The position numbers were made by a program, and so were the translations under genes. 64,000 nucleotides of DNA from Dehalococcoidia bacterium. GTDB lineage: Bacteria; Chloroflexota; Dehalococcoidia; Lucifugimonadales; UBA1123. Numbering within the stretch: the stretch's first letter is position 1; each line of letters starts with the position of its first letter. The stretch lies in contig OZ220685.1 of NCBI GenBank assembly GCA_965116405.1, forward strand, positions 1,875,492-1,939,491, read 5' to 3'. This document shows positions 3,001 through 46,812 of the stretch, piece by piece. The notes beneath the pieces were generated by a model. It was given only the letters and a program-made list of their open reading frames with translations, was not told where the DNA came from and ran no database searches.

Positions 3001-3265
3001 CCGGGTTGGCCTCGACGTCGGATGCGGCCCTCTCCAGTTCCTCCCTGATGCGCTCCTGGAGCTCGGAGGCCGCGGAGTTGGTGAAGGTGATCGCAGCGAC
3101 CTTGTCCACGGTCGTTACACCAGTCCCGATCAGGTTGACGACCCTGCTCACCATGCTGGTCGTCTTGCCGGTACCCGCTCCGGCCTCGACGAACATCGTC
3201 TCGCCGAGCGAGAGCCGGATCTTGTCGCGCGCGACCTGGTCTATTGGTGTAAACGACGTCGTCAT
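1..3265 (-). CDS. addA: UvrD/PcrA-family helicase-nuclease, AddA-like; C-terminus runs off the window (at least 1088 codons here)
   Basis: Hand translation from ATG at 3265, just downstream of the addB-like stop: MTTSFTPIDQVARDKIRLSLGETMFVEAGAGTGKT (Walker A). Later motifs are LLLDEAQDTDP (II), GDPKQSIYRFRRAD (III), TVHGSKGLEFPVV (V), LLYVAATRA (VI), and IGRAVHAVLQ near base 240 (RecB-type nuclease region). This frame has no stop down to base 1, which explains its absence from the supplied ORF track. Confidence 0.85.
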   Translation of the reverse strand, partial: MTTSFTPIDQVARDKIRLSLGETMFVEAGAGTGKTTSMVSRVVNLIGTGVTTVDKVAAITFTNSAASELQERIREELERAASDVEANPVWRERYAAGVEDIDSATFTTLHSFAGAILRERPLEAGLPPSFETMDQVASDLDFDEKWNEWLDWTLDDADNVPTLPVALSLGLRPAHLRQIALQFHNNYDLLEGVEFDDAAVHPHPQGEGAERGRNSQTVIPANAGIQGMGNVLRQAQDERVVGLSTPVSPESEGIPGMARFQSVQRLVEAGPELERLCGFSKLQEDDQLFQHVQSKMSSMRRLSEMEAGSPVALGMLSRLMPLRQTRGRQGDWNTDPSSGVNACKQLKEYLQEIHDEVAMELDQARDTSLPPILAALRDFVIGYEQERKLEGRAGYHDLLVWARNLLRDNISVRDHFRQRYTHLLLDEAQDTDPIQMQIAMFIAEDVPDGTPPESRPTDWRNVPPAAGRLFVVGDPKQSIYRFRRADVRQLNTLKSRMNQTPVNLDQNFRSHRPIIDWVNHLFGQWMEASESQAEYVSLRHMWQTSTSEDGLHSVWRLGDAFDAPIGEVRELECQGIASALGQIAGAGWQIRSGESDGVPEYRSARYSDICILMPTRTGLRDLELALDEADVPYRLEGSSLIFDTQEVRDLLNCLRAIDDPGDEVAIVAALRSPAFACTDVDLLRYYESGGRFDYLSRSDAIGGPVAEGLETLNDYHERRMWTSVAALIDGFIRERPLMAAAVDHPRRREQWRRYRFIVAQARAFTEAGGGSLRSFLEWIDRQRSEGARVTETPVPETDEDAVRIMTVHGSKGLEFPVVILTGLNARRSNRTGQVLFDRQDGHSGRNSVEVKVGSGVQRFQTSGYEALESDEKSMLDDEHVRLLYVAATRAMDHLVLSMYRRLGSESDASYIADHFEGQDDMWRRLPDPAEQMPVAISQGSSDRSTDDIDVVDHSGDARIRWIEARDDLIGRQGRPTTVAATRLAEVANEETKDEQENDEPWRRGRAGTQIGRAVHAVLQTIDLATGDGIEDTARAQAYAEGIPGRVDDIVRLSRVAVRSSVVRRAVESGRFWREVPVGVPIAGGSLQG
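2530..2672 (-). repeat. composite hairpin repeat (modules C + A + B) embedded in frame in addA
   Basis: Module B is at 2548-2575, module A at 2590-2616 (GGATTCCCGCATTCGCGGGAATGACGG) and module C at 2631-2669. It translates as HPHPQGEGAERGRNSQTVIPANAGIQGMGNVLRQAQDERVVGLSTPV. Confidence 0.8.
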
Positions 3266-3269
3266 GTAA

Positions 3270-6200
3270 CTACTCGCCAACCAGGTCGCGGTAGCCGGAC
3301 AGCATCGGATTGTCGCGCTTCTTCTCCCAAATGCCGTCCCGCCGGGAGGGGCAGAGCGAGTCGAACTCGCAGAACCCGCAGTTCTCGAACCCGAAGTAAG
3401 CGTTTCTCTCTCCGGGATTGGCGGGAAACACGCCGCTCCTGATGCCAGAGACGATGCCGGAGACCACTTCACCGAGTCTTCCACGAACCTCGTCGGAGTT
3501 CCCGTCGACAGGTTCCTTCGGAGCGAGCGCGAATGCGCCCCGCGTCGTCACAAACCAATAGGCGGAACTCACACTCTCGACGTTGTCCAGGCCACCCTGG
3601 GCCGCGAGCGCATACACGCCAAGCTGGAGCCGTCTGCCCCTGTCCGTGGGGTCGTTCTCTAATCCGTTGTACGGGCGTGGGCTGCCTGTCTTGTAGTCGA
3701 CGACGAGCGCGGCGCGGCCGTCTGAGGAGATGTCGACGCGGTCGATCACGCCCCTGAAGCGCACTTGGTCGCCGCTGTCGAGACTCCACACTGCCTCTTG
3801 CCATGGACTGCCGCGCAGCCCGAAGCCGACCTCGAACGCGCTCGGGACCACGCCGAACCTCTCCCTGTGAGCGTCGTCGCGCTCCAGGAACGTGTCCAGG
3901 TCGGCCAGGATTTGCGCTCTTTCAAGCTCCCACATCACCGGCCTGCCCGTAACGCCGTCGGACTCGGCCTTGGCGAATTGCTCGCGGGCAACACTCATGA
4001 GCACGGCCCTGTGGCTGGTACTCCACGCCTCGTCCGGCTGGGGCATCGTTCCAGACCCGGCCACACGCCTCATGAACTCATCGAGGATGTTGTGGATCAG
4101 ACTGCCGCGTTCGAGGGCCGATATCGAGAACACGTCCTCTGGCGTCTCAACTGAGCCGATCCTCAGCACGTTGCCCAGGAAGTAGCTGAACGGGCACGCG
4201 GCCCAGCGTTCGAGCCGCGTCGGAGACAGCGCCCTGTTCAGGGTGTAGCTGGTATACCCGGCCTCTCTAGCGACGGACGAACCGTTGCCATCCCATTCAG
4301 TGAAGTTCCGGCTGTTGCGGGCTCGTCCCAGGTCGAGCGCCCTGCCCAGGGTCGCGCCCGTGGCGAACGGGTGTCGCGATACGTACTGGCCGGCACTCTT
4401 CCAGCGCACGAGGTGGCGCAGGTCATAGTCGAGAACGTCAGCGGCGTTTTTAGCTTCTCCGTCGAGGAGCGCGGACTCCGCCGAGGGAACGACGGTCAGC
4501 CAGTCCCTGCCTCCCATGCGCTGGAGCTCCGAGGCCGTCACCCGCGTGCCGTTCAACTCCGCCGCCTGTTCGAGCAGCCATCTTGACGCGTGCTGCTCTC
4601 GTCCGGCGGACGGGTCGGCCAGCGACACCGACAGGGTCCTGTCAGGCGCGCTGTCGAGCGCGTACAGGTATTCGAGCCGCTCCCTCGCCCTGGCGTCCTG
4701 CTGCATCTCGAATCCCGCTGCGGAGCCCCCTGCGCGGAGCCTCGCCGACTCTGGCACCAGCGGGTCGTCTGCCTGTGCGGGCGGCACCGCCCCCTCGATC
4801 ATCCCGACGAGGTACACGGCGTCGAACTGCATTCCTGCCGCATCCCGGAACCGGGCGACAAACACGCCACGGCCCGTCTCGCCCAATCGCCCGGCCGTAG
4901 CCTGTAATGCCTCGTACAGGTCCTCGCGGAATACCGGGAACGTCGGCTCCGGCGCGACCGCTCCCGCAGCGGTGAGCTCCGACAGGATGTCTTGTATCCT
5001 CTCCAGCGTATCCAACTCGTGCTCTGGAGTGCCCGCTCCCCTGGACACGTAGTCGTCAACGAGCTTTCGAGCCCACTCGGAAAAATCGGTCCATGAAGAT
5101 CCTTCGCCCGGCGGCTGAATGTCGTCGTGCAGGCGCTCGATGAAAGCGAGCAGCCCCCGCGCAGACTCAGCCTGTCCACGGATTCCTCTTAGCCTGCCCT
5201 CAGACATCTCCTCGGCCACTGCAGGATCGGAGATCGACTCCTCCAACCTCGCGGCGTACTTCTGCAGCCTGTCTCGCCACTGTCCGATACCCCGTACGAT
5301 CCCCGACTCCTTCGACAGCCTGTCCCACCTGCTCGGATTCAGACGTATCTCCCTGGAAGGCGACCTGACCGGGCATCCGGTCAGCCAAGACGTGACGAGG
5401 CCACGCTGGAGGTCGCTGTCGGCCAGTCCCATGAGACCTGTCAACGTCCTGCCCACTGCGGTCTCCGCCAACGTGGTGCGGTCTGGACCGGCGATGGGTA
5501 TGCCCGCCAGTTCCATCTCCTCGGCGATGAGCTTGCCGTAGTCTGGCTTCCGGTACAGCACCGCGATCCTGTTGAAAGGCGTCCCTTCCCGCGCCCTATT
5601 GGCGATCTGCCGGATCACCCACCTGATCTCCTGGTGTGGGTCGGACGCGATCAGCAGATGGGTATCGGCTTCTTCCGACGTCTGAGGGATGGTCTGAGGC
5701 TCGCCAAGAACTGGCGACAGTCTGTTCGCCAGCGTCTGCGTGGGACCGTCGGTAACTGAGTCGCCCGTAAGCCCCATCATCACGACGCAGCGGTCGCGCC
5801 TTCCCAACGCTTCTATGAGCGCACGCTGGGCGGGTGTGATGTCGCTCGGCATGTAGAACACGATTGCACCGAGGTCTCCAAATCCGGCGGTGGGCTGCTC
5901 GTCGACCGACTCGGCAGCGGCCTTCGCCAGGTCCTCATCGTCGTAGAAGTCTGCGACGTCACGCCTGAACTGCCGGTACAGTCTCACAGTCTCGGCCTGC
6001 AGCTCGCTGGTGGAGGCAAGAGCGTCGAGCGCGGCGACGGATACGCTTCTCAGTTCGCGAAACGACTGCTTGAGGCTACGAAGCGTTGACGAGTGTTCGC
6101 GCAGGTCGCCAAGCGGCCCAACCGCACCGCTGGCCACAGACCTGACTGCGGCGTTTTCGATCACGCGAGTAAGCGGAGCCCGGCCCTCGCTCGCCATACG

Positions 6201-6419
6201 CGGCGCGCCAAGGAACTCGGCGAGCCGCGAAAACACCATGAACCTGACGTTCACAAACCCGACGCGAGCGAAGTCGTGCCTCAGCGATAGGTTGGCGTAG
6301 TTGGACGGCCCCACGACCGTTACCGGCGCCAGCGGATCGTCGAGCTTCAGGCCGTTGACCACATCGTGCAGTGATTTAGCCGAGAGTTTGCCAGCGATGA
6401 GCGATCGGGAAAGTTGCAT
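3270..6419 (-). CDS. addB: AddB-like PD-(D/E)XK nuclease subunit of a helicase-nuclease complex
   Basis: 1049-aa ORF immediately upstream of the helicase gene. The C-terminal nuclease-like region has the Cys pattern ACPFSYF ... FENCGFCEFDSLCP, typical of the AddB Fe-S domain. The N-terminal P-loop is degenerate (VTVVGPSNYAN). Confidence 0.8.
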   Translation of the reverse strand: MQLSRSLIAGKLSAKSLHDVVNGLKLDDPLAPVTVVGPSNYANLSLRHDFARVGFVNVRFMVFSRLAEFLGAPRMASEGRAPLTRVIENAAVRSVASGAVGPLGDLREHSSTLRSLKQSFRELRSVSVAALDALASTSELQAETVRLYRQFRRDVADFYDDEDLAKAAAESVDEQPTAGFGDLGAIVFYMPSDITPAQRALIEALGRRDRCVVMMGLTGDSVTDGPTQTLANRLSPVLGEPQTIPQTSEEADTHLLIASDPHQEIRWVIRQIANRAREGTPFNRIAVLYRKPDYGKLIAEEMELAGIPIAGPDRTTLAETAVGRTLTGLMGLADSDLQRGLVTSWLTGCPVRSPSREIRLNPSRWDRLSKESGIVRGIGQWRDRLQKYAARLEESISDPAVAEEMSEGRLRGIRGQAESARGLLAFIERLHDDIQPPGEGSSWTDFSEWARKLVDDYVSRGAGTPEHELDTLERIQDILSELTAAGAVAPEPTFPVFREDLYEALQATAGRLGETGRGVFVARFRDAAGMQFDAVYLVGMIEGAVPPAQADDPLVPESARLRAGGSAAGFEMQQDARARERLEYLYALDSAPDRTLSVSLADPSAGREQHASRWLLEQAAELNGTRVTASELQRMGGRDWLTVVPSAESALLDGEAKNAADVLDYDLRHLVRWKSAGQYVSRHPFATGATLGRALDLGRARNSRNFTEWDGNGSSVAREAGYTSYTLNRALSPTRLERWAACPFSYFLGNVLRIGSVETPEDVFSISALERGSLIHNILDEFMRRVAGSGTMPQPDEAWSTSHRAVLMSVAREQFAKAESDGVTGRPVMWELERAQILADLDTFLERDDAHRERFGVVPSAFEVGFGLRGSPWQEAVWSLDSGDQVRFRGVIDRVDISSDGRAALVVDYKTGSPRPYNGLENDPTDRGRRLQLGVYALAAQGGLDNVESVSSAYWFVTTRGAFALAPKEPVDGNSDEVRGRLGEVVSGIVSGIRSGVFPANPGERNAYFGFENCGFCEFDSLCPSRRDGIWEKKRDNPMLSGYRDLVGE

Positions 6420-6440
6420 CAGTCGGTAGGATGCGAGGGT

Positions 6441-6471
6441 CTCACTCCTCGCTCCTCTCCACTCACTCCTC
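6441..6471 (-). repeat. purine-rich GAGTGAG-type intergenic repeat
   Basis: The reverse complement GAGGAGTGAGTGGAGAGGAGCGAGGAGTGAG shares the 16-mer AGTGAGTGGAGAGGAG with 53220-53235. Confidence 0.7.
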
Positions 6472-6486
6472 GGCGCAAAGCGCCCC

Positions 6487-7542
6487 TCACACCGCCCTCG
6501 TGACGGCCATGGACGCCACCTTGGGCAGCTCGCTCAGAATCACCGAACAGCGGTAACCCGTCGCCTCGGGAGAGCCGGCCCTCACCACCAGGATGTCGTC
6601 AGGCTCGGGAACGAAGTTGGCGAATACCTGGTAGTCCTGGGGGCCAACGTCGCCCTCCAGCACACGGACGATCTTCAGGTCGGCAATCGACCGGCCAATT
6701 CTCGGGTGAAGGTAATCGCGGACGTCTTGCTTCGTCCATGTCCCCCAGAAGTCGGCGGCTCCACCAATCGTCACCACGAGCTCGCCCTGCCTTACGGGCG
6801 TTGACTCGTCTCCGACCGAGTCCGACGACGCCAGCGACGATCCAAGCACCGAGGCAACGTCCGCGACCGTGTCCAGCACCACCTCCTGCGAGTATGCTGC
6901 CGAGCGTACCTGTCTCGGCTCCCACGACGCGAACACCGTGACCGCGCTCTGGTCAGGGCTGAACCCGCGCTCCACGTGCAGAGGCAGCCAGTCGGAGTCT
7001 GACTCGTTCTCGGCGATGCAGTACGTGTACTTGCCAGGGTGTCCGATTACCGTGCGGTCGAACAGGCCGGGTATGGACGCGCAGGCGTTCATCAGGATGA
7101 GGCGAATCGCGCGCCCAATCGTCGCGTTGGCGCGGTTGCCCGGCCCGAACAGGTTTGCGCCGGAGTTCATGCCAAGCTCATCCACGACGGGCCCATTGAC
7201 GATCACCAGCACTGCCGCGCCGCCCTGGCTGGATGAGGGTGCGATGAGGTTGAACTCAGGGTCCAGCATCGCCTCAGTGGCGGCGAGCACGACGGGGAAG
7301 TACTCAGGCAGGCAACCGGCCATGACCGCGTTCGCGGCTGTCTTGGCCACGGTGACCTCGCGCCTGCGCTCCGGTATCGAGCCCAGGACTTCGTCCGCGG
7401 GACGCCCTGCGACGTCCATGAACTCCTCCACCCGCTGGAGCGTCGGAGGCACGACGGGCAGTCCGTCAGTCCAACCCATCTCGTAGCAGCGCTCGATGGC
7501 CTCGATCGCATCGTTCCACTCGGCCGTTACCAGGTCCTGCAT
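6487..7542 (-). CDS. conserved hypothetical protein
   Basis: 351-aa ORF with no competing frame. The N-terminus reads ...CYEMGWTDGLPVVPPTLQRVEEF... I recognise it only as an uncharacterised conserved family. Confidence 0.65.
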   Translation of the reverse strand: MQDLVTAEWNDAIEAIERCYEMGWTDGLPVVPPTLQRVEEFMDVAGRPADEVLGSIPERRREVTVAKTAANAVMAGCLPEYFPVVLAATEAMLDPEFNLIAPSSSQGGAAVLVIVNGPVVDELGMNSGANLFGPGNRANATIGRAIRLILMNACASIPGLFDRTVIGHPGKYTYCIAENESDSDWLPLHVERGFSPDQSAVTVFASWEPRQVRSAAYSQEVVLDTVADVASVLGSSLASSDSVGDESTPVRQGELVVTIGGAADFWGTWTKQDVRDYLHPRIGRSIADLKIVRVLEGDVGPQDYQVFANFVPEPDDILVVRAGSPEATGYRCSVILSELPKVASMAVTRAV

Positions 7543-12120: not shown

Positions 12121-14655
12121 TTGAGTGGTGCACCGTTGGCGGCCCCTCCAGCTTCCCAGATCTCGCTCCAGGTCACTGGAATGACCTGCGCCGCCTGTGT
12201 CTCCCACGTCTCGGACGCGCTGATGTCGGTGGATGGCGTGGATGATGTGGCGGTGAACCTCGCTACCGAGAAGGCGACACTATCTCTCCGGGAGCCCATG
12301 GAACAGGGCAACGGGTCGATCAGCTTGGGCACTCTCAGCTACGCCCTGGAAGATGCCGGATACGGCGTCGCCACCCGCAAGGTTACCCTGGGTATCGAGG
12401 GGATGACTTGCGCTGCATGTGTGTCGCACGTTGAACACGCCCTGACGGGCGTCAGTGGCGTCGAGTCGGCATCCGTCAACCTGGCAACCGAACGGGCCAC
12501 CGTTGAGTACGTGCAGGGCGTGACCGGCATCGCGGACCTGCGGCTCGCCGTCGAGGACTCAGGCTACGGCGCCACGGCAATCGGCGACGGCGAATACGAC
12601 GCAGACTCCACACCAACTCGTCTGGCGGCTCTGAGGATCAAGTTCGTCTTCAGCCTGGCTGTCGCCGCGGTAATCATGGCACTCATGGCACTGCCGGGCG
12701 CGCATGATCTGCTTCCGTTCGATATGGACCTACTCCTGTTCGCGCTTGCGACGCCGGTCCAGTTCTGGGCCGCGTGGAGCTTCTACACCTCGGCCTGGAA
12801 CGCGGCCCGCCACCTCACGTCGAACATGAACACGCTAATCGCCGTGGGCACATCTGTCGCCTATATCTACAGCGCGGCCGTCACGATCTTTGGGAACTCG
12901 TGGTTCTTCGAAGGGCGCGCCACCGATACCTACTTCGACACTTCCACCGCTATCATAGGCATCGTCCTGCTTGGCAGGTTTATGGAGGCCAGGGCTAAAC
13001 AAAGGGCATCCAACGCGATACACGCCCTTATGAGCCTGCAGCCTCCCGCCGCACGGGTCATCAGGGGCGATGAGCATGTAGATGTCTCTATCGAGGACAT
13101 AGTCGTCGGAGACAAGATCGTCGTCCGTCCGGGCGAGCGGATTCCCGTGGACGGCGTCGTCGACACGGGTACGTCGTCCGTTGACGAGTCGATGCTGACC
13201 GGCGAGAGCGCTCCCGTATCCAAGGAGCCCGGAGACGATGTCTACGGCGCAACCGTCAACGGACGCGGCAGCCTGGTATTCACGGCGACTCGTGTCGGAC
13301 GCGACACCATGATCTCAAGCATCATCAGGCTCGTCGAGGAGGCCCAGGGCTCCAGGGCTCCGATTCAGCGACTGGCCGACCTCATATCGGCATACTTCGT
13401 ACCTGCCGTCATCGGAGTGGCAGCGTTGGTGTTCCTGGTCTGGCTGGCGGTCGGCCCTGACCCCAGTTACGTCACCGCCATCCTCACCGCCGTTGCGGTG
13501 CTGATAATCGCCTGCCCATGTGCGATGGGACTCGCCACGCCGACCGCCATCATGGTCGGTACTGGCAAGGGCGCCGAGAACGGCGTGCTGATACGCAGCG
13601 CCGAGTCGCTCGAACGAGCGCACGCGGTCGATGTCGTCGTACTGGACAAGACCGGCACCATCACGATGGGAAGACCGTCCGTCACCTCGGTCCACTTGCG
13701 ATCAAGTGCTTCCTCTTCCTTGGCGGGAGAGGGTGAAGACCGACTGATGTCGCTTGCGGCGTCAGTCGAACATCGCTCCGAGCACACGCTCGGTCAGGCG
13801 ATACTCGATCACGCACAGGAACGCGGACTCACGCTTCACGACTCCGACGACTTCTCCGCCATCCCGGGAGCAGGCGTTACAGCCACCGTCGATGGCGTCG
13901 AGGTCTCAATTGGCAACCGCGTCCTGATGGATGATCTGGGACTCTCGACCGGCAGCATGGATGAGGTAGCCACTCAGCTCGCGGCGCGCGGCAGCACGCC
14001 GGTGTTCGTCGGACTTGACGGCGTAGTCGAGGGCGTCATTGGCATAGAAGATGCGCTGAAGCCCGAGTCCGCTGCCGCCGTTGCCGCGCTGCGTGACAGG
14101 GGCATCGAGGTCGTCATGCTGACCGGTGATAACGCCCGTACCGCCACTGCGGTCGCCTCCACAGTCGGAATCGACAGGGTGATCGCAGAGGTGCTGCCGT
14201 CCGACAAGGCTGAGCGTGTCCAGGAGATCATGGCCGATGGCAAGACTGTGGCGATGGTCGGCGACGGCATCAACGACGCCCCTGCGTTGGCACAGGCCGA
14301 CATCGGGATCGCCATAGGCACAGGGACCGACGTCGCTATAGAGGCCGCAGACGTAACGCTCGTAGGAGACGACCTGCTCGGCGTGCCGGCGGCAATAGAC
14401 CTCAGCCGGGCCACCATGCGAGTCATCAGGCAGAACCTGTTCTGGGCGTTCGCCTACAACGTCGCGCTCATCCCGGTCGCGGCCGGAGTGCTGTATCCTC
14501 TCTTCGCCGGAGCAGGAGTGCCCGACGCCATTCGTCCGATACTGGGCGAACACGGCTTCCTGAACCCGGTCCTCGCCGCGGTGGCCATGGCACTCAGCTC
14601 AGTGACAGTGGTTTCAAACTCGCTGCGACTGAAGAGGTTCAAACCGAGCGCCTGA
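12121..14655 (+). CDS. copA: copper-translocating P1B-type ATPase with two N-terminal HMA domains
   Basis: Two [11 protein letters not shown] metal-binding motifs, plus [17 protein letters not shown] and GDGINDAP. Confidence 0.92.
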
Positions 14656-14699
14656 CGGCCCTCTATTGTCGTCGATTCACCAAAAGGAGAAACGCCCAG

Positions 14700-14903
14700 A
14701 TGAGAATCCCCCTGTTCAACAGGAGCGGCTCCGACCGCGCCACCGACCCTGTCTGCGACATGCAGGTCGACGTCCGCAAACCGCCCGGCGGCAGCTACGA
14801 CTACAACGGCGAAACCTACTACTTCTGCGCCCCAGGCTGCAACCGCGCCTTCCAAAAGGATCCCGAAGCCTACCTCTCCGGCGAAAAGAAAGTCCAGATG
14901 TGA
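14700..14903 (+). CDS. YHS/TRASH-domain small metal-binding protein
   Basis: 67 aa with the DPVCDM...YYFCAPGC pattern. It lies directly downstream of copA. Confidence 0.8.
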   Translation: MRIPLFNRSGSDRATDPVCDMQVDVRKPPGGSYDYNGETYYFCAPGCNRAFQKDPEAYLSGEKKVQM

Positions 14904-15005
14904 AGGCTGAATCCTTGAAGGACTCTTCTCTTGGGGTACAATCTGTCACACACCGTCGGGTGGAGAAGGTTCCTGCCATTTGGGTGAGGAACCAGGGGTG
15001 ACGAC

Positions 15006-15575
15006 ATGGTTATTGGGGCTAAGAAGAAACTCTTCACCGTTGATGAGTACTACGAGATGGCTCGCGTCGGGATCCTGACCGAGTCCGACCGTGTCGAGCT
15101 GATCGAGGGTGAAGTAGTAGAGATGTCTCCAATTGGAAGCCGTCACCAGGGGATAGTTGACAAGCTGAATTCGCTCTTCGTCAACGCTGTGGGCGACCGC
15201 GCTCTTGTCCGGATACAGGGGCCGCTACGACTTGCGGACATGACTGAGCCTCAGCCCGATATTCAGCTGCTGATACCTCAGAACGACTTCTACACCAGCG
15301 ACCACCCGACGCAACTCGATGCTCTACTAGTAGTGGAAGTGGCCGACACGTCGCTGGCCTATGACCGCAACGATAAGGCAGCAGTCTATTCCATGCGGGG
15401 AGTCCCCGAGTTGTGGATTCTCGACGTGAACAGCCCCCGACTCTTCGTCATGCGGGAGCCGGCTGAATTGGGCTACCGTGTTGTCATGGAGCTCGAAGCC
15501 GGCGATGTAATCTCGCCACTGGCCCTGCCGGACCTGTCTTTAGCCGTATCCGACATGCTTAGCCCGCTGCTATAG
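15006..15575 (+). CDS. Uma2-family (DUF820) restriction-endonuclease-fold protein
   Basis: 189 aa with FTVDEYYEM ... VELIEGEVVEMSP ... VVEVADTS, typical of the Uma2 family. Confidence 0.75.
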   Translation: MVIGAKKKLFTVDEYYEMARVGILTESDRVELIEGEVVEMSPIGSRHQGIVDKLNSLFVNAVGDRALVRIQGPLRLADMTEPQPDIQLLIPQNDFYTSDHPTQLDALLVVEVADTSLAYDRNDKAAVYSMRGVPELWILDVNSPRLFVMREPAELGYRVVMELEAGDVISPLALPDLSLAVSDMLSPLL

Positions 15576-16296: not shown

Positions 16297-17688
16297 CTAG
16301 TCCGGGTAGCAGAACGAGTCGGACGAAGAGTCGCCGCCTTCAAGTCTTATCTGGTGTGGACGCTCGTCGCCGAAGTCCATGAAGAAGTCAGGGTCGACTT
16401 CCATCCCACCGTCAGGCGATGCGTTTATCTTGGTCGTCCAGCCCCGAATTCCTTCTGGGTACAGCTGCTCGTCCCATGCGATGTACAGGGAGTTGGTCAG
16501 GTAGATCCTGCGTCCGTCTCGGCTGACCTCCACCATCTGCGGGCCGCCGTTCAGCGGCGTGCCGTTGGGGTGGGATGCCTTCCTGACGATTCCGCCCAGG
16601 TGAACGGATCCGGTGAGCTTGGGGTCGAAGGGGTCAGACACATCGTACTGCCTAAACTCCCCTGTACCCCAGCACGACACGTACAGGAACTTGTCGTCCA
16701 GGCTGAGGTTGATGTCAGTTATGACAGGCGGCACCGCGCCGAAGCCCTGCAGCAGCGGAGGCAGCAGGTCCGGGTCGGCAGGCTCAGCAGGAACTTCGAT
16801 GACCTTGGTGGCCGTCCACTCGTCGCCGTCCTGGTGCCACAGGAAGACCGAGCCGGACAGGTCCTCAAGGCTGGTCACCACTCCCACGAAGCCGTACGCC
16901 TTGCGTGGGTCGTGAGCTGGCCTCAGTTCCAGCGCCATCTGGTGCTGGGCTCCCAGTTCGATAACCTGCTTGTGCTTGCGGGTCCTGAGGTCCCACACGT
17001 GTAGCTGGTGACCGTACTGGCCGTCGAGCAGCAGCTCGGGAAGGATCCCCGATTCCACCATCTTGGGCGTTCCCCACTCACTCGTGATCATGGTGTCGTG
17101 GTTGAGATGCCACCAGAAGTCGTAGGAGAGCACCTGCGGGCCTCTGTCAGCTTCCCATGCGCCCTTTACCTCGAAGGTCTCATGGTCGAGCATGAAGATG
17201 CCGCCAGGACCCTCGCCGTCGGGCGAGCCGAGCGCGTTCATGTAGATTGCGTCCGGTCCGCAGTGGACGGTGTGAGGCCGGCTGTACCCGGTCTTCTTCT
17301 GGAAATCTTCCGCCTTGATGACCTTCGCGATCTTCGGGTTCCTGGGATCGTCCTTGGTGTCCACAACGTAGATGTTGGACGATCTCAGCCCACCAAGCAG
17401 CAGGTACCGGCGCTCGACATGCGGATGAGGCATGTTCGGGCACAGCGACGCGCTGCACGCATTCCAGCCGAAGTGGTGCAACTCGTCCCCTGAGGTGGGC
17501 ATATCCATCCGACCGACAACCTGTTGGTAAGTGGGGGATGACGGATTTACGTCCAGGACGCCGAGGGCGTCCGGCTTACCGTCGTCTTTCGGGTTGACGA
17601 TCGCTACGTAAGCGAGTTCTTCTTGGGGGGCATCCATCGCCATCTTGGGTGACGGGTAGAAGGTCGGGTCGGGTGTCCAGGTGGCCAT
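16297..17688 (-). CDS. selenium-binding protein 56 family / methanethiol oxidase homologue
   Basis: 463 aa. By eye it resembles the SBP56 family over its full length (HHFGWNACSAS, SCWGTGEFRQYDVSDP, GGPQMVEVSRDGRRIYLTNSLY). Confidence 0.88.
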   Translation of the reverse strand: MATWTPDPTFYPSPKMAMDAPQEELAYVAIVNPKDDGKPDALGVLDVNPSSPTYQQVVGRMDMPTSGDELHHFGWNACSASLCPNMPHPHVERRYLLLGGLRSSNIYVVDTKDDPRNPKIAKVIKAEDFQKKTGYSRPHTVHCGPDAIYMNALGSPDGEGPGGIFMLDHETFEVKGAWEADRGPQVLSYDFWWHLNHDTMITSEWGTPKMVESGILPELLLDGQYGHQLHVWDLRTRKHKQVIELGAQHQMALELRPAHDPRKAYGFVGVVTSLEDLSGSVFLWHQDGDEWTATKVIEVPAEPADPDLLPPLLQGFGAVPPVITDINLSLDDKFLYVSCWGTGEFRQYDVSDPFDPKLTGSVHLGGIVRKASHPNGTPLNGGPQMVEVSRDGRRIYLTNSLYIAWDEQLYPEGIRGWTTKINASPDGGMEVDPDFFMDFGDERPHQIRLEGGDSSSDSFCYPD

Positions 17689-17783: not shown

Positions 17784-19775
17784 CTAATCCGCACTGGCGG
17801 ACCAGTCCCAGAATTTTCCGGCCTGGGCGAGGCACGTTTCGACATCCTGTTCCAACAGGAGACGCTCGGCAACCAGCTTCTGAGCCGCTTCGCGCACAAG
17901 CGACAAGTATAAATGTTTTGACGGGTATCGTGAACCTATGGACGGCCTTGGATCCCCCGAATTGGTGAGCTCGCTTTCGTTTTTCACGAACGGGATGAAG
18001 CCGCCGGCGAACATCAACGGCTGGGTCTCGCCGCCAATGTCGGGATGACGCAGGTTCCAGCCTGTATGGGCCGCCAGCGGTACTGATATCTCCGGCAGCG
18101 CAATTCCCGCTAACTCATTCCCGTCCGGGTCCACGTCCGACACCAGCGAGCCGTATACCTTGCCAACGGCAGGCGGCATCTTCGTCACCTGCTCCACGTC
18201 GGACTTCAGTTGGTAGTCCCGCCTGTGCGGAAGTGGATGCCTGGTCGGATAGTTGGACCCCGGAATCGCGTCCATGACTCCCCTGAGCTTTGCCGGCGGC
18301 ACCGCGGTCCCGTCGTCGACCCTGGGATGGCGACTCTCCGGTGGCTCGATTCCCTCTGCAACCCACCGGTCGAGGTTATCCAGGCACGCCCTCAGCAGCG
18401 GCGTGTAGTCGATTACGCTCCGCATGTTCTGGGTGCGGCTGATGCCCTCTCCTGAATCAGAGGTGTCCGTCGGCGGCCATGTGCCGGTGCCGTGCTCGGT
18501 GCCGGTGAAGTGGTACACGCGGACGTTCGGGCCGGGGTCGACGTCCACCGTGCCGTCGGGGTCCGTGTGAATGAGCGACGCGTCGCCCCTGTGGTACTCG
18601 GCTGACGTGTTGGTGTAGAAGACACGCAGTGGACTGCTGCGAGCGTCCAGCCTCCGGTGAAGCGAGTCGGTCACTCCGGTCTCGGGATCAGTCTGCTCGA
18701 CACTGGAGAACGGGAACAGTTGCGTCAGCATGTTGTTGCGGTCCTTCGAGTTCTGGCCGAACCGCTGGTTGAACTCGCCCCGCATTCCTCCCGCGACGTT
18801 GGCGATGATCCCGTCGAGCGCCTCGCGTCCCTGCTCATCGCGGTTGAAGTCGTTGTAGATGTACGTGCGCAGGTAGCGACCGGTCTGGGAACGTCCATAC
18901 GCGTACGCGTAGCTGATGTCGATTGGCGACTCCGAGTCCTGCGACCCGTACTTGAACCACGAGACGCAGTCACGCAGCCCGGCGAAGCTCAGACCCAACA
19001 CCGGAGCCCCGACCGTCGTGTACACGATCTGGTAGAGTCGGCCCTTCTCGAACTTGCCCTCTGCACAGATGTAGTCGGGGTCTGGGACGTACGTCCCGTC
19101 TTCTTCGATTCTCCCGAACCGCCAGTAAGAGCGCGGCACGAGCCTAGCCGGGCCGTCGGGCATGTCCCGAACTTCGAGCCGGGCGTCCGCCTCGTCCATG
19201 TCGTAGGCTGGATACGCCCTGTGACCCTTGTCGGACAGCAGGAAGTTGTGCGTGTCCTCGACGCTCTGGAGCTGCGTGTACACCTTCCCGACCATTGGCC
19301 CGCCGCTCTCGTTCTCAGCGTCCGGGCCGTCCATGGTGATAAGCGCCGGGAAAGCAGGAGTGTCGCCCTGCCAGCCGCACGCCACCACTGTGTAGCCTCG
19401 CTCCATCAGGAAGCCGTTGCCGAGACTGATATCGGCGTCATCGCTCACCCCTGCATCTATGGCCAACCGGTCGGCGCTGTTGAAGTTCGGCAGCGCGACC
19501 CGGTTGCCGCGATTGACGACGTCCAGCATCAACCGTCCGCTCCCTTTGGAGCGGTCCGCAGGCAGGATGATTGAGACATCGGACGAGAAGTCCACTCCGC
19601 CCGCGCTGTTCCTCGGCGCCCGCCCGGCGTCCGTGACGCGCGCATTGGCCGCGTTTTCCGGGTCGATGGAGAACCGCAGGGTGCCCCGTATCTCCTCGTA
19701 TGGCCCTACGTCACCCCACGACCTGCCGTCGGCGAGTGGTCTCCTGAATTTGACATCTAGTCTGCTAACCGGCAT
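17784..19775 (-). CDS. large conserved hypothetical protein (possibly alpha/beta-hydrolase-domain family)
   Basis: 663-aa uninterrupted ORF. The N-terminal pattern GRLMLDVVNRGNRVALPNFN resembles an uncharacterised hydrolase-domain family. The assignment is tentative. Confidence 0.65.
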   Translation of the reverse strand: MPVSRLDVKFRRPLADGRSWGDVGPYEEIRGTLRFSIDPENAANARVTDAGRAPRNSAGGVDFSSDVSIILPADRSKGSGRLMLDVVNRGNRVALPNFNSADRLAIDAGVSDDADISLGNGFLMERGYTVVACGWQGDTPAFPALITMDGPDAENESGGPMVGKVYTQLQSVEDTHNFLLSDKGHRAYPAYDMDEADARLEVRDMPDGPARLVPRSYWRFGRIEEDGTYVPDPDYICAEGKFEKGRLYQIVYTTVGAPVLGLSFAGLRDCVSWFKYGSQDSESPIDISYAYAYGRSQTGRYLRTYIYNDFNRDEQGREALDGIIANVAGGMRGEFNQRFGQNSKDRNNMLTQLFPFSSVEQTDPETGVTDSLHRRLDARSSPLRVFYTNTSAEYHRGDASLIHTDPDGTVDVDPGPNVRVYHFTGTEHGTGTWPPTDTSDSGEGISRTQNMRSVIDYTPLLRACLDNLDRWVAEGIEPPESRHPRVDDGTAVPPAKLRGVMDAIPGSNYPTRHPLPHRRDYQLKSDVEQVTKMPPAVGKVYGSLVSDVDPDGNELAGIALPEISVPLAAHTGWNLRHPDIGGETQPLMFAGGFIPFVKNESELTNSGDPRPSIGSRYPSKHLYLSLVREAAQKLVAERLLLEQDVETCLAQAGKFWDWSASAD

Positions 19776-20520
19776 TTGCTTCCCCCACCAGATCTGACTT
19801 TTCCATCGTCCGTTCGTTCTCGTTCGTCCTCGACATGTACCTGGGGACGATTACCAGTATCGCCGCCTCAATTACAACGGCTAGCGCGATGAGCATGGTT
19901 GCATCGAAGAAGAACCCCTGAGGGAACATGGCTATCAGGTAGTCGCGCCTTGGATCGAGCTGCCACAGGTCGTTGCTGAAGCTGATCAGATGGAACGCCA
20001 GGAACAGCCTGTCGAATCCGACAAGCGATCCAAGGCCGACCAGCAGGACCAACCCAAGCGTCACCCCGCCGCCCCAGCGCATCAGAGTGCCCAGCATCGG
20101 CGTAAAAGAACGCCCCCAGTTTATGAAACCGCCCACGATCACCAGTGCCATGAACAGGCCTGTGATCTCCGACACCCGGTACACGCCCTTGACAAGCCCC
20201 TTCACATCCCGCATGTGCAGCACTTCACGCTCGTTGTAGAGGTTCATGACGCGGATTCCGCCAACAACCACTCGTATCTCGAGCAGCTCGGCGTCGTTGT
20301 TGAAGTAGTCCCTGATCTGCTTTCCCGCCGAGATCAGCTCGTCCCGTTCAATTCCCGTGTAACGCACAATGTCGTACCTGTCGAAACCGTACGAGTAGAG
20401 AGGCGGGAAGTTGATGACCCAGCGGACGTTGAACGCTATCAGAAAGATTGGCACCATCGCGATGAACAGGACGGCAAGTACAACCTTGACCGTCGGCGCG
20501 ATGTCAATCCGGGGCGTCAT
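19765..20520 (-). CDS. DUF1461/TIGR01906-family membrane protein (Lit-like)
   Basis: Contains the motif FHLISFSNDLWQLDPRRDYLIAMFPQGFFFDA and TM helices. I prefer the ATG at 20520 (MTPRIDIAP...), because the track start at 20598 would overlap the divergent mazG start. Confidence 0.7.
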   Translation of the reverse strand: MTPRIDIAPTVKVVLAVLFIAMVPIFLIAFNVRWVINFPPLYSYGFDRYDIVRYTGIERDELISAGKQIRDYFNNDAELLEIRVVVGGIRVMNLYNEREVLHMRDVKGLVKGVYRVSEITGLFMALVIVGGFINWGRSFTPMLGTLMRWGGGVTLGLVLLVGLGSLVGFDRLFLAFHLISFSNDLWQLDPRRDYLIAMFPQGFFFDATMLIALAVVIEAAILVIVPRYMSRTNENERTMEKSDLVGEANAG

Positions 20521-20576
20521 GCGGTAGCATCTTATGGACGTGTTCCAGAGGGTGTCAAACAGAGAGGTGAACACCA

Positions 20577-21371
20577 GTGACAGACGATAGCTTCCCAAGC
20601 AGCTTCGAGGGGATCCAGCAGCTCGTCGCGACGCTGCGCTCGCCTGACGGATGTCCCTGGGACAGGGAACAGTCAGCCGACTCCCTCAAGCACCTCTTCC
20701 TGGAGGAGTGCTACGAGCTCGTGGAGGCCATCGAAGAGGGCGACGTGGAGAAGATTGCCGAGGAGCTAGGTGACGTCCTCTTCCACGGCGCTTCCCAGAT
20801 ACAGATAGCCGAGGAACGAGGCGACTTCAGCGGCTCCGACGTCTTCCAGCAGGTCATAGAGAAGCTGGTCCGTCGTCACCCGCACGTCTTCGGCGACGTC
20901 GTCATGGAGAATGCCGAAGAGGCTGTACCCCGCTGGGACGAGATCAAGCGCCAGGAGATGGCCGGCACCGACAGGTCGATCCTGGACGGTGTTCCCAAGG
21001 CGATGCCCGCGATGGGATATGCCCAGGCAGTGCAGGGTCGGGCGGCGCGAATGGGCTTCGACTGGGACGACTACGCCGGTGTGCTGGAAAAGGTCACCGA
21101 GGAGCTCCGCGAGCTGGAAGAGGTCGAGACTGACGACGCTCGCGAGGCTGAGTTGGGCGACCTCCTGTTCTCACTGGTCAACGCGAGCCGCTGGATGGGA
21201 ATCGAAGCAGAGACCGCCCTGCGAAAGTCCAACCGCAGGTTCTACTCCAGGTTCACTACGATGGAGCGTATGGCGCGCGACCGCGGCCTCGACTTCGAGT
21301 CGCTGTCTCTCGATGCGAAAGAAGACCTCTGGCAGGAAGCCAAGCGAGCCGAGTCCCAGACCGGCGAGTAG
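20577..21371 (+). CDS. mazG: nucleoside triphosphate pyrophosphohydrolase MazG
   Basis: LRSPDGCPWDREQSADSLKHLFLEECYELVEAI, plus a second MazG repeat (ELGDLLFSLVN). Confidence 0.9.
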   Translation: MTDDSFPSSFEGIQQLVATLRSPDGCPWDREQSADSLKHLFLEECYELVEAIEEGDVEKIAEELGDVLFHGASQIQIAEERGDFSGSDVFQQVIEKLVRRHPHVFGDVVMENAEEAVPRWDEIKRQEMAGTDRSILDGVPKAMPAMGYAQAVQGRAARMGFDWDDYAGVLEKVTEELRELEEVETDDAREAELGDLLFSLVNASRWMGIEAETALRKSNRRFYSRFTTMERMARDRGLDFESLSLDAKEDLWQEAKRAESQTGE

Positions 21372-26714: not shown

Positions 26715-28016
26715 TCAACCCGTGAACAGCTCCGTATCGCGGTACCAGTCCGTCCACGCGAACCAGAACGACAGGTGCGATGGAAGACGCTCGAGCCTCG
26801 CGCCGGATAGCTCCCCCTCGACAGCCAGGCCGCTGAACGCCGACCACTTCGTTCCGGTCTCTTCGTCGACCAGCTTTGTCAGAATGCCGTTCGGCTCACC
26901 GTCTATGGAGAATGTCAGCGTGCGGTCGTCCACGGTCCGATCGAAGACCAGCGCCGTTCCGGTTGGACCGTCCATGTACACCAGCGCGGGCTGACCGCCG
27001 ACGTCGTCGTTCACAACTGGGGTGTTGAGTAGGGTGGAAGTCGGGTAAGCCTTGGTGACGCCGTTGAAGTCCACCCCGACCACCAGCGCCTTCGTGCCGA
27101 GTCTGTCGTCTTCGTGTGCCCGGCCGATTACGCCCGGCCTGTTGCTCATGTAGTAGCCGTTGTAGTTGTCGTACCTGGCCAGACCGCCCGTCGACATGAC
27201 CTTGGTATCGGGATGAAGCTCCTTCCAGGTCGCCCACGTCGTCTGGGTTACGGGGACAACGTCCAGCTCCACGTCCTTCAGTTCACCCTCAACGCCCTTC
27301 CTGAGGAACTGGCTCCAGAGGGTGCGCGTCTGGTGGTCGTACATCACCAGCGCGTTCATGATCAGCTTGCCGGATACGCCGAAGGTGTACTCTTCGTCTT
27401 CGATGGTGCGGCTATACACGATAGCCGAGAAGCAGAGTGGTCACCACGTCACCGCGACAGGTTTACCTCCAACGGTATCGTTGACTATCTCGTGCGCGCT
27501 GAGGGTCGGGATCGAGTATGCCCGGTGGTCGCCGTTGATAGAGAGTCCGAGCACCAGGTTGTGGTCTTCGAGCTCCTCTGAGGCAACTTCGGCGCTGACG
27601 AACTCCGGTTCGAGAATCGCCGGAATCGCGTCGAAAGGCAGCAGCGTTACGATCTCCAGGTCTCGCTCCTCGTCCTCCGACGTCACGGTTGCCGGAGCCG
27701 CCGCATCTGACGTAGCCGCGCTAGGGGGCGCGGCCGTTGGTGCAGGAGCCGAAGTGGATGTCGGTGCCGGCGTTGCGGGCACCGACGTCGATGTCGAGAC
27801 TGCCGCGGCTGTTGGGGGCGGCGCGGTCGGCGCCGCCGGGGCACTCGTGGGTGGAGGCGCTGTCGGTTGCGCTCGCGCGCTCGTGGCTGGCGCCGTAGTC
27901 GGTGCTTCCTGAGGCTCCGCCTGCTGCGGAGTTACATCCTCACTGCTGGAGCAGGCGACCGCCAGGGCGACGAGGCAGACTGCTACCAGCACAATTATCC
28001 ATGTTATTTTGGGCAT
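26715..28016 (-). CDS. DUF3179-domain lipoprotein with in-frame TGA (27441-27443), candidate selenocysteine (U-P-L-C)
   Basis: Track ORFs 27441..28016 and 26715..27419 share one frame and are separated only by TGA plus 7 sense codons. The read-through gives ...GGKPVAVTW-U-PLCFSAIVYSRT... The N-terminus has a lipobox (LAVAC) and an Ala/Pro/Thr linker. Confidence 0.7.
27409..27427 (-). promoter_or_regulatory. SECIS-like hairpin 13 nt downstream of the in-frame UGA
   Basis: CGGCUAU-CGUGU-AUAGCCG on the mRNA strand: a perfect 7-bp stem with a 5-nt G/U-containing loop. Confidence 0.5.
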
Positions 28017-28095: not shown

Positions 28096-28803
28096 CTAGC
28101 TGATCTGACGCGGTGAGGGTCCCCAGCGCTTTTCGTGGGAGGCCACGAGGTCCGTCAACTCTTCCCGGTAGGAGTCGCTCCTGATCGGTACTGTCGTCAT
28201 GATCAACGCGTCTTCGCGATTGTCGGAGTAGTAGCCCTTGCGTGTGCCCCTCTCAGTGAACTTGTACTTCTTGTAGAGGTTCTGCGCCACGTAGTTCGAG
28301 ACCCGCACCTCGAGCGTCACCACCCGCGAGTCCATCTCGAGGGCCTGCTCGATAGCCGAAATCAGCAGAAGCTCACCCAGCCCGTAGCCGCGATACTCGC
28401 TCCTGACCCCGATGGACACGATGTGCGCCTCGTCGACCATGTACCACAGGCCCACGAAGCCGACGATGAGGTCCTCACCCGGCTGCCACGATGGATTGCG
28501 TCCCCTCCACATGTGGCGCGCGCCGGTCACCAGGCGGTTGAACAGGGGGCCATTGGGCGTCTCGGCGGACAGATCGGGGAGGGGAGGTAGATCACCCTCG
28601 TCGCCAGAACTCTCCCCTCGGCGCGACAGCACGAGATACCGGGCTATCCTGTTTCGCAGCTCGCGCCTGAAAGATGTGGGCGGAAAGAGTGTCGGAAAGG
28701 CGTCCTTCTCTACCTCGGCAGCCTGTCCAAGGTCGCGCTCCTCCATCGGACGAACGGTAAACGGTCGCGCCGTTGTAGGAGACTGTCTCCGGACCGCGCT
28801 CAC
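28096..28803 (-). CDS. GNAT N-acetyltransferase, RimI-like
   Basis: VRPMEERDLGQAAEVEKDAFP ... IGVRSEYRGYGLGELLL, a typical GNAT core. Confidence 0.78.
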   Translation of the reverse strand: MSAVRRQSPTTARPFTVRPMEERDLGQAAEVEKDAFPTLFPPTSFRRELRNRIARYLVLSRRGESSGDEGDLPPLPDLSAETPNGPLFNRLVTGARHMWRGRNPSWQPGEDLIVGFVGLWYMVDEAHIVSIGVRSEYRGYGLGELLLISAIEQALEMDSRVVTLEVRVSNYVAQNLYKKYKFTERGTRKGYYSDNREDALIMTTVPIRSDSYREELTDLVASHEKRWGPSPRQIS

Positions 28804-35635: not shown

Positions 35636-35917
35636 TTATCGATGGTAGTCCACTATCTCGACGTCGTGAGGCCCATCGTCTTCCCAGCGAAAACAGACAC
35701 GCCACTGTCTGTTGATGCGAATGCTGTATTGCCCGCTTCTGTCTCCTGAGAGCGATTCCAGCCTATTGCTGGGCAGCCCTGCCAGGTCGTGAAGAGCGGC
35801 AGCATTGTCCAATATGGTTAATCTACGCGTCGCCTGGTCTGCAAAGCTCTGGTAGGCACGTACCGGGTGACCTTCGAAGAATCGTTGCGCTCTCCGATCC
35901 TTGAAACTTCTAATCAT
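35636..35917 (-). CDS. higB: HigB-type toxin (RelE/ParE superfamily killer protein)
   Basis: MIRSFKDRRAQRFF ... QYSIRINRQWRVCFRWEDDGPHDVEIVDYH. Confidence 0.85.
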   Translation of the reverse strand: MIRSFKDRRAQRFFEGHPVRAYQSFADQATRRLTILDNAAALHDLAGLPSNRLESLSGDRSGQYSIRINRQWRVCFRWEDDGPHDVEIVDYHR

Positions 35918-46464: not shown

Positions 46465-46812
46465 TCAGCCCATCAGGTCTGCCATCGCCTTCTTGTCCGT
46501 GCCGACGATCAGGTCTCCGTCACCGGTCATGATCAGGGGTCGCCGGATCAGCCTGGGCTCTTCCACCATGAGCTTGAGCAGCTTGTCGTCACTGAGCTCG
46601 TCACGGGTCAACCCCATCTTGCGGAAAGACGGCGACCTCCATGAGAAGAAGTCCGAGACGGGCTTGGAGCCAATTGTTTCCCTGAGTTCGTCAACGGAGA
46701 ACGGCTCAGCGAAAAAGTCGCGCTCTTCGTATTCGATTCCGGCCTGCGAAAGCTCCGCTTTCACTCTTCGGCAGGTACTTCAACGCTTCCATGTGTAGTA
46801 CGTGGCAGGCAT
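46465..46812 (-). CDS. ArsC/Spx-family protein with in-frame TGA (46780-46782), candidate U-S-T-C selenoprotein
   Basis: ATG at 46812 (GAGGTG 9 nt upstream) gives MPATYYTWKR-U-STCRRVKAELSQAGIEYEERDFFAEP... This aligns by eye with Spx [33 protein letters not shown]. Confidence 0.75.
46746..46764 (-). promoter_or_regulatory. SECIS-like hairpin 15 nt downstream of the in-frame UGA
   Basis: GUGAAAGC-GGA-GCUUUCGC on the mRNA strand: a 6-8 bp stem with a G-rich apical loop. Confidence 0.45.

Follow-up and report, generated by a model that had tools for sequence, protein, structure and literature searches.

A DUF3179 family selenoprotein gene in a Dehalococcoidia genome, with a UGA codon conserved across related species and a covarying SECIS-like hairpin

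The locus at 26715-28016 on the minus strand of the window, the 64-kb stretch of Dehalococcoidia DNA analysed here, is a genuine selenoprotein gene whose family is already catalogued. The reading that best accounts for the evidence as a whole is a single DUF3179 gene whose in-frame UGA is very probably recoded through a SECIS element and SelB, and whose product would be exported, anchored and most likely equipped with a redox centre. A first-pass annotation made from the letters of the sequence had described the ORFs, the TGA, the hairpin and the lipobox, and each of these descriptions proved correct when we re-checked it.

Results

A single domain runs across an in-frame TGA

Two minus-strand ORFs, one of 191 aa that ends in TGA (27441..28016) and one of 234 aa (26715..27419), lie in a common frame and are separated by the TGA at 27441-27443 and the seven sense codons P-L-C-F-S-A-I, so that both the coordinates and the frame originally proposed for this pair are confirmed. 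The read-through product is 433 aa long and reads ...GGKPVAVTW[TGA]PLCFSAIVYSRT... across the junction. With Cys put in place of the TGA, the 433-residue protein matches PF11376 (DUF3179) in Pfam with E = 8.9e-88 and 294.9 bits (cut-off 27), and the match is unbroken over the TGA, covering profile positions 2-292 of 292. Because this is one PF11376 stretch, at residues 129-428, the domain is continuous through the TGA. The features of the locus, and another selenoprotein gene elsewhere in the window, are as follows.

26715..28016, minus strand: the whole selenoprotein gene, with 433 codons, among them one UGA (Sec), closed by the true stop TGA at 26715-26717
27951..28016, minus strand: signal peptide with lipobox (…LAVA-C22), predicted N-terminal lipid anchor (lipobox pattern)
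27633..27950, minus strand: Ala/Pro/Thr-rich low-complexity linker, residues 23-128, from anchor to domain (translation)
26733..27632, minus strand: DUF3179 domain (residues 129-428), in which one predicted all-beta module is duplicated in tandem (Pfam, half-to-half alignment, AF2 model of a Cys homologue)
27441..27443, minus strand: UGA predicted to be read as selenocysteine, residue 192, first place of U-P-L-C (Cys alignment; TGA in 79/80 relatives)
27432..27434, minus strand: UGC codon, Cys195, partner Cys of the UxxC (P-L-C invariant, 80/80 loci)
27409..27427, minus strand: putative bacterial SECIS hairpin, in which 27421-27427 pairs with 27409-27415 as a 7-bp stem around the 5-nt loop CGUGU (27416-27420) (fold, covariation, model criteria)
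46465..46812, minus strand: the other selenoprotein gene, which encodes a 115-aa protein of the ArsC/Spx family with U-S-T-C, UGA at 46780-46782 (PF03960, fold, homologue lengths, conservation)

Among ordinary stops in the window TGA is the most frequent, terminating many full-length Pfam-matched genes. Since it serves as a normal stop elsewhere in the window, there is no genome-wide reassignment of the code, and the recoding is specific to the site. Across 27441-27443 the locus is one gene, neither two genes nor a pseudogene; the earlier proposal of one 433-aa selenoprotein is upheld by the single PF11376 domain that spans the TGA and by the presence of TGA in 79/80 relatives.

The TGA codon is conserved across related genomes and corresponds to cysteine

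The codon had been placed on the first Cys of a conserved CPLC motif, and alignment bears this out: the TGA column is the first Cys of W/Y-C-P/L-L-C in 9/9 full-length Cys homologues (VAVTW/Y-C-PLC). We also looked for TGA-containing DUF3179 genes in related genomes, as had been suggested, using one genome per GTDB species, and list 80 loci of the 563 GTDB hits, with 56-95% protein identity. All come from Dehalococcoidia, SAR202, Chloroflexota or Anaerolineales MAGs, many of them closed chromosomes, and one protein, from the closed chromosome OZ247432.1, is 95% identical to that of the window. TGA stands at the identical codon in 79 of the 80 listed loci and TGT in one (L063). The 79 TGA-bearing genomes share the motif W-U-P-L-C-F/Y, and the P-L-C that follows the codon is invariant in all 80 listed loci despite falling outside both called ORFs.

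Database proteins tell of the same codon in another way. Among the best 120, 100 are fragments of 184-240 aa, mostly 232-236, that start just past the TGA. The other 20 are Cys forms of greater length that share about 50% identity with the query; 19 are full-length (358-418 aa) and one is a 299-aa partial. Conservation of the TGA throughout the lineage, and the correspondence of Sec with Cys at residue 192, are thus direct observations.

Because the TGA is fixed in 79 species and both of its flanks are under protein-level selection, it is neither a pseudogene lesion nor a sequencing error. An error in sequencing or assembly would require only one base to turn TGC or TGT into TGA, but the same TGA recurs in 79 independent assemblies from several technologies and projects, closed chromosomes included, and we consider this explanation extremely improbable. 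A true stop, which would leave either a pseudogene or two genes (a 191-aa lipoprotein fragment and a 234-aa protein from GTG 27419), agrees with the way gene callers split the locus in nearly all public records, as the 100 fragments among the best 120 proteins attest, and with the lack of Sec machinery within the 64-kb window. A nonsense codon, however, would not persist at one position in 79 species while the sequence on either side is conserved as protein; moreover, the invariant P-L-C is encoded within the seven inter-ORF codons, the site is bridged by a single Pfam domain and a single beta-hairpin, and the RNA hairpin downstream covaries. Taken with these points, a true stop is very unlikely.

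The hairpin downstream of the TGA behaves as a SECIS element

The hairpin CGGCUAU-CGUGU-AUAGCCG (27409-27427) begins 13 nt past the TGA. The published bSECIS consensus (PMC13188914) describes a loop of 3-9 nt, an upper stem of 4-16 bp, a distance of 16-37 nt from UGA to apical loop, an MFE <= -7.5 kcal/mol, and a G at loop position 1 or 2 that is usually followed by G or U. The window hairpin agrees with all four of the published criteria. Its loop is 5 nt and its stem 7 bp, with an 8-bp stem and a 3-nt loop as a variant in relatives. The loop reads C-G-U-G-U, in which the G (column 25) is invariant in 65 sequences and doubles as the opening base of a Val/Gly codon; variant loops in relatives are AGUCU, AGGUU and CGGGU. 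From UGA to loop there are 20 nt, made up of the 13-nt spacer and the 7-nt stem arm. The bare hairpin folds at -8.4 kcal/mol against the threshold of <= -7.5 (z = -2.9; equally stable shuffles 1/200), a 60-nt fold reaches -13.8, and the structure is conserved beyond coding constraint.

The stem is in register at every TGA-bearing locus listed. In a set of 65 distinct 45-nt sequences, 98.7% of stem cells are standard pairs, and two of the 7 stem pairs covary with changes on both sides: pair 20:32 switches from C:G to G:C in 20 sequences, and pair 21:31 occurs as CG (31), UA (22), AU (10) and UG (2). Covariation scores 0.309, against 0.081 when shuffled, and 0/500 shuffles reach the observed score; sliding the 3' arm by 1-3 columns as a control lowers pairing to 27-42%. 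The compensatory changes alter the encoded residues (SAIVYSR, SAIVYGR, SGIVYAR), so RNA pairing constrains the amino-acid sequence at the hairpin. Coding also constrains the nucleotides of the loop and some positions in the stem, and part of the conservation of the hairpin is therefore not independent evidence. Since TGA recurs in 79/80 species-level genomes and the stem covaries, the observation is not due to chance.

The Cys-form genes bear on this assignment as well. Those at L063, L085 and L086/L087, the last being one gene on two contigs, retain 3-5 of the 7 stem pairs and differ at synonymous sites, so that the stem is degraded in 3/4 distinct Cys-form genes. The fourth, L088 (TGT, C-L-L-C), lies directly upstream of a Sec-form paralogue, and its stem is perfect, the sequences of arms and loop being identical; this suggests a recent duplication in which Sec was converted to Cys and a fossil SECIS was left behind. 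As L088 keeps a perfect hairpin next to TGT, the hairpin alone is not diagnostic, and a recent Sec-to-Cys conversion accounts for this case. The original description of a perfect 7-bp stem with a 5-nt loop, 13 nt past the TGA and SECIS-like, stands on the model criteria and on covariation, and the hypothesis that the hairpin at 27409-27427 acts as a bacterial SECIS element is strongly supported by its sequence features.

Probable selenocysteine decoding in the organism and a second selenoprotein gene

Within the 64-kb window, ARAGORN finds tRNA-Trp only and thus no Sec tRNA, Rfam gives nothing at gathering thresholds, and Pfam scans of about 40 genes show no SelA, SelB or SelD. A scan of the window for further Sec candidates returned just the two, at 27441 and 46780. 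A CUCECC match at 35713 was set aside as a Sec candidate because of its junk-looking frame.

The candidate at 46780, which the first-pass annotation had offered as a second UxxC site, is genuine. TGA 46780-46782 occupies the first Cys position of the CxxC in an ArsC-family protein encoded by 46465-46812 on the minus strand, which reads MPATYYTWKR-[TGA]-STCRRVKAEL... and matches PF03960 with E = 2.7e-17. About 15 nt past this UGA lies a hairpin, GUGAAAGC-GGA-GCUUUCNC. The best 120 ArsC-family homologues measure 88-125 aa, mostly 99-101, against 115 aa for the read-through product, lengths that fit gene calls beginning beyond this TGA. Both TGA and hairpin are conserved in three other genomes at four loci (L081-L084), and among the ArsC-bearing relatives is a chromosome of 3.44 Mb on which a Sec-form DUF3179 gene is found as well (L017). 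The closed chromosome OZ242284.1 has both Sec genes.

Chloroflexi were counted among the Sec-decoding phyla as early as 2006 (PMC1794560), and all five SAR202 bins analysed by Slaby et al. 2017 have the SelA, SelB and SelD COGs (Table S4, PMC5649159). Our literature search found no reports specific to selenoproteins of SAR202. The ArsC-like gene and the DUF3179 gene together mark the lineage as a selenocysteine user.

Structure-stimulated UGA read-through occurs in bacteria, a fact that favours a further alternative in which the hairpin would stimulate decoding of the UGA as Trp or Cys by near-cognate or suppressor tRNAs, with no Sec involved. We judge it very unlikely, if somewhat less so than a true stop. 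The site is the catalytic-type Cys of a CxxC, a classic position of Sec/Cys exchange; the hairpin matches the SelB-type bSECIS in spacing, loop size and loop G; and a second, known selenoprotein family displays the same pattern in the same genomes. In addition, SelA, SelB and SelD are reported in SAR202 genomes (PMC5649159), and DUF3179 is catalogued as a selenoprotein (PMC9312934, PMC13188914). Insertion of selenocysteine at UGA-192, directed by SelB and the SECIS, is predicted with high confidence from these features.

Predicted membrane anchoring, fold and genomic neighbourhood

The N-terminus of the protein, MPKITWIIVLVAVCLVALAVAC, fits a PROSITE-type lipobox pattern, {DERK}(6)-[LIVMFWSTAG](2)-[LIVMFYSTAGCQ]-[AGS]-C, through the segment AVCLVALAVAC followed by SSS (in full, MPKITWIIVLVAVCLVALAVA-C22-SSS). 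What defines a bacterial lipoprotein, a signal peptide ending in a lipobox with an invariant Cys, is therefore present in the sequence. An Ala/Pro/Thr-rich stretch of ~100 residues comes next and forms the linker. A lipobox is found in 30 of 81 genes (the 80 related loci and the one in the window), and an N-terminal hydrophobic stretch in 76. Because anchor signals occur in 76/81, extracytoplasmic, membrane-tethered placement is conserved, and the suggestion that lipobox (LAVAC) and linker would put the U/CxxC outside the cytoplasm is borne out by the pattern match and the hydrophobic N-termini.

Elsewhere in the window, at 19765-20598, there is a homologue of Lit, the lipoprotein transacylase.

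The two halves of the DUF3179 domain are 36% identical (E = 8e-24), which reveals an internal duplication, and in their alignment W-C-P-L-C of repeat 1 stands opposite M-D-G-P-T of repeat 2. We found no sequence relatives of the DUF3179 protein in the PDB, and no NCBIfam model matches it. The structure considered here is an AlphaFold (AF2) model of a Cys homologue, P0009, and not of the window protein. Its mean pLDDT is 82, with values >90 across most of the domain and <60 in the N-terminal region. The model comprises two similar, almost all-beta units, and its motif cysteines, Cys148 and Cys151, are located on a turn between strands 141-148 and 153-158.

Foldseek searches of the PDB with this model gave weak local Rieske/NirD-like matches only (E about 0.02, probability 0.9-1.0), with a target TM of 0.4-0.6 over about 90-130 aligned columns and an identity of 9-13%. 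No solved structures other than Rieske-fold and NirD-like beta domains thus resemble the P0009 model even locally. Membership among Rieske [2Fe-2S] proteins was rejected: the CxH...CxxH ligands are absent, there is one U/CxxC only, and the fold matches are weak and local. Since the ligand motifs are missing, the similarity to Rieske/NirD domains is a lead at the level of fold and not a classification. A thioredoxin-fold CxxC oxidoreductase was likewise rejected, given that the model is almost all beta, the motif lies between strands, and Foldseek returned no thioredoxin-fold matches.

Across the 81 loci, a GNAT acetyltransferase is found upstream in 44; 20 have a sulfatase downstream and 16 have FolD close by. 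The neighbourhoods of the Cys forms are unrelated to one another. Neither a redox partner nor a metal system or selenium gene accompanies DUF3179 with any consistency across the loci examined, and we therefore draw no functional inference from the neighbourhood.

Discussion

Relation to known selenoproteins

The first-pass annotation had presented the gene as a candidate unlisted selenoprotein outside the classical families, and the claim that it is unlisted does not hold. The entry 'DUF3179 domain-containing protein, pfam11376, UxxC/T' appears among the prokaryotic selenoprotein families of Zhang et al. 2022 (PMC9312934), with MBW1804167.1 as its example, and the same UxxC/T family is entered by Zhang et al. 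2026 (PMC13188914), with MDJ0986319.1. Both catalogues credit DUF3179 to the Olavius symbiont metagenome study of Zhang & Gladyshev 2007 (PMC1976440), and each gives one example accession and no function. The companion suggestion, that a Sec form would point to redox chemistry, is no new lead: with DUF3179 already catalogued, it is the field's standing assumption.

The window gene shows every sequence-level feature of this family (PF11376, UxxC/T), namely a full-length PF11376 domain, Sec as the first residue of UxxC, CxxC in the Cys homologues and a hairpin after the UGA. It differs in no way of kind; the window copy is predicted to be anchored as a lipoprotein and comes from a marine Chloroflexi genome of the Dehalococcoidia/SAR202 type. 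The gene at 26715-28016 is accordingly a member of a catalogued family and adds no new family or mechanism. In the available literature we found no mention that the Sec form is nearly fixed in Dehalococcoidia/SAR202 (79/80 listed species), nor of SECIS-imposed covariation at the amino-acid level in DUF3179, nor of a fossil SECIS in a tandem Cys paralogue.

Two other groups of selenoproteins invite comparison. The protein of 46465-46812 resembles the ArsC/Spx selenoproteins (NCBIfam NF041106, 'ArsC family (seleno)protein') in being small, in having Sec in place of the first Cys of CxxC and in the hairpin that follows its UGA. Its score against NF041106 is 24.9 bits with a cut-off of 85, so it represents a different subfamily. 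Unlike DUF3179, to which they are unrelated in sequence, ArsC/Spx proteins are cytoplasmic and have a thioredoxin-like fold. The DsbA-like, DsbG-like and thiol:disulfide interchange selenoproteins, which both catalogues also contain, are, similar to DUF3179, exported or membrane-anchored with a U/CxxC or CxxU redox pair. Such extracytoplasmic thiol:disulfide oxidoreductases offer the likeliest functional analogy. They adopt the thioredoxin fold, whereas for DUF3179 an all-beta module in duplicate is predicted.

Proposed mechanism and function

We propose that, during translation, the hairpin 13 nt past UGA-192 would act as a bacterial SECIS element and bring in SelB with GTP and Sec-tRNA(Sec), such that the UGA would be read as selenocysteine and not as a stop. 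The product would then be exported, with a lipid-modified Cys22 tethering it to the outer face of the membrane and the flexible Ala/Pro/Thr linker coming next; export and lipid anchoring are predicted with moderate confidence. The first repeat of the duplicated all-beta domain would bear U192-P-L-C195 on a loop between two strands, where U192 and C195 may form a reversible selenenylsulfide and thereby a redox centre outside the cytoplasmic membrane. Confidence in this last step is low to moderate. The redox reading is preferred because Sec/Cys exchange occurs at a CxxC and because UxxT members fit a single nucleophilic Sec; a role for U192 and C195 as a pair of ligands for a soft metal or metalloid appears less likely. 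Overall, we infer SelB dependence, selenium incorporation and redox chemistry from sequence features.

Implications for Dehalococcoidia/SAR202

A broader proposition is that the Sec form of DUF3179 is near-universal in marine and sponge-associated Dehalococcoidia/SAR202 (79/80 sampled), displayed at the surface as a lipoprotein or signal-anchored protein and built on a fold unlike those of solved oxidoreductases. In this full form we regard the proposition as doubtful. If true, an extracellular selenoenzyme would define this lineage, which ranks among the most abundant bacteria of the ocean, and Dehalococcoidia/SAR202 would have a selenium demand that has so far gone unaccounted for.

For the gene itself, the value lies in the correction of annotation: joining both ORFs restores a conserved selenoprotein that is predicted to be surface-exposed. 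Because gene callers cut the gene in two and no NCBIfam model covers it, this selenoprotein is systematically missed in Dehalococcoidia/SAR202 genomes. The locus also provides a clean, covariation-backed example of a SECIS element, in a family whose Sec form is dominant in the sampled clade.

The ArsC/Spx-family selenoprotein gene

Beyond the DUF3179 gene, the window holds a second selenoprotein gene.

46465-46812 (-), TGA 46780-46782: ArsC/Spx-family selenoprotein gene (PF03960)

The read-through product, MPATYYTWKR-U-STC..., comprises 115 aa, and a hairpin, GUGAAAGC-GGA-GCUUUCGC, lies ≈15 nt past the UGA. Both the TGA and the hairpin are kept in all three of the other genomes read (four loci). 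Relative to the 115-aa read-through, the nearest 120 homologs in the database span 88 to 125 aa and are mostly 99 to 101 aa, shorter lengths that are consistent with gene calls beginning 3′ of the same TGA. The window protein itself falls short of the score cut-offs that NCBIfam sets for its existing "(seleno)protein" ArsC models.

Other genes in the window

12121-14655 (+), in region 12121-15575: copper-type P1B ATPase with two HMA domains
14666-15001 and 15006-15575 (+): two small ORFs after the ATPase
16297-17688 (-): full-length SBP56 "selenium-binding protein"/methanethiol-oxidase-like gene (PF05694, E = 1e-192)
19765-20598 (-): Lit (lipoprotein intramolecular transacylase) homolog (PF07314)

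Neither small ORF has an NCBIfam match, and 14666-15001 also lacks a Pfam match. The Lit homolog fits with lipoprotein maturation in the source organism. Against the NCBIfam MtoX model, the SBP56-like protein scores 123 bits, far under the 650-bit cut-off; nothing ties its gene to the Sec genes, but the gene is noteworthy given the use of selenium by this genome.

Neighbors, copies, and overlapping reading frames of the DUF3179 gene

28096-28803 (-): GNAT acetyltransferase (RimI-like), immediately upstream of the DUF3179 gene on the same strand
27322-27912 (+): long antisense ORF over the DUF3179 gene, 196 aa

A GNAT acetyltransferase gene adjoins the DUF3179 gene in 44 of the 81 loci (the window's own included), an adjacency that could reflect either an operon or mere synteny. 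Antisense ORFs over the gene reach 330 aa in relatives (for example, 2905-3897 (-) in locus L002) and cluster as a 24-locus "family." These ORFs are typical high-GC artifacts, which gene callers could mistake for genes.

Separately, chromosome record OY762261.2 carries two Sec-form DUF3179 copies, L056 (810526-817491) and L057 (1380020-1386891), that are identical around the TGA. One lies right where the record ends, and the pair could reflect either true duplication or overlap in the assembly.

The SECIS stem in DUF3179 genes

L088 (ENA ERZ26167216, 397-kb contig), 5001-7510: tandem DUF3179 pair, Cys form then Sec form

The Cys-form gene (protein P0014) has TGT and the motif C-L-L-C, and its Sec-form paralog, which gene callers cut into 183 and 237 aa, follows directly. 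The Cys copy retains a perfect stem whose arm and loop sequences are those of the adjoining Sec copy; this stem is apparently a fossil SECIS, a remnant of the Sec form from which the gene recently converted to Cys.

Among the distinct 45-nt sequences across the hairpin (alignment A2), stem covariation of columns 20/21 with 31/32 (window 27405-27425 (-)) is coupled to amino acid changes. Ala/Gly at Sec+5 covaries with Ser/Gly/Ala at Sec+10, and the variants of this stretch are SAIVYSR, SAIVYGR, SGIVYAR, and SGIGYSR. The DUF3179 protein sequence at the SECIS stem is shaped by RNA structure, and its correlated residue changes are forced.
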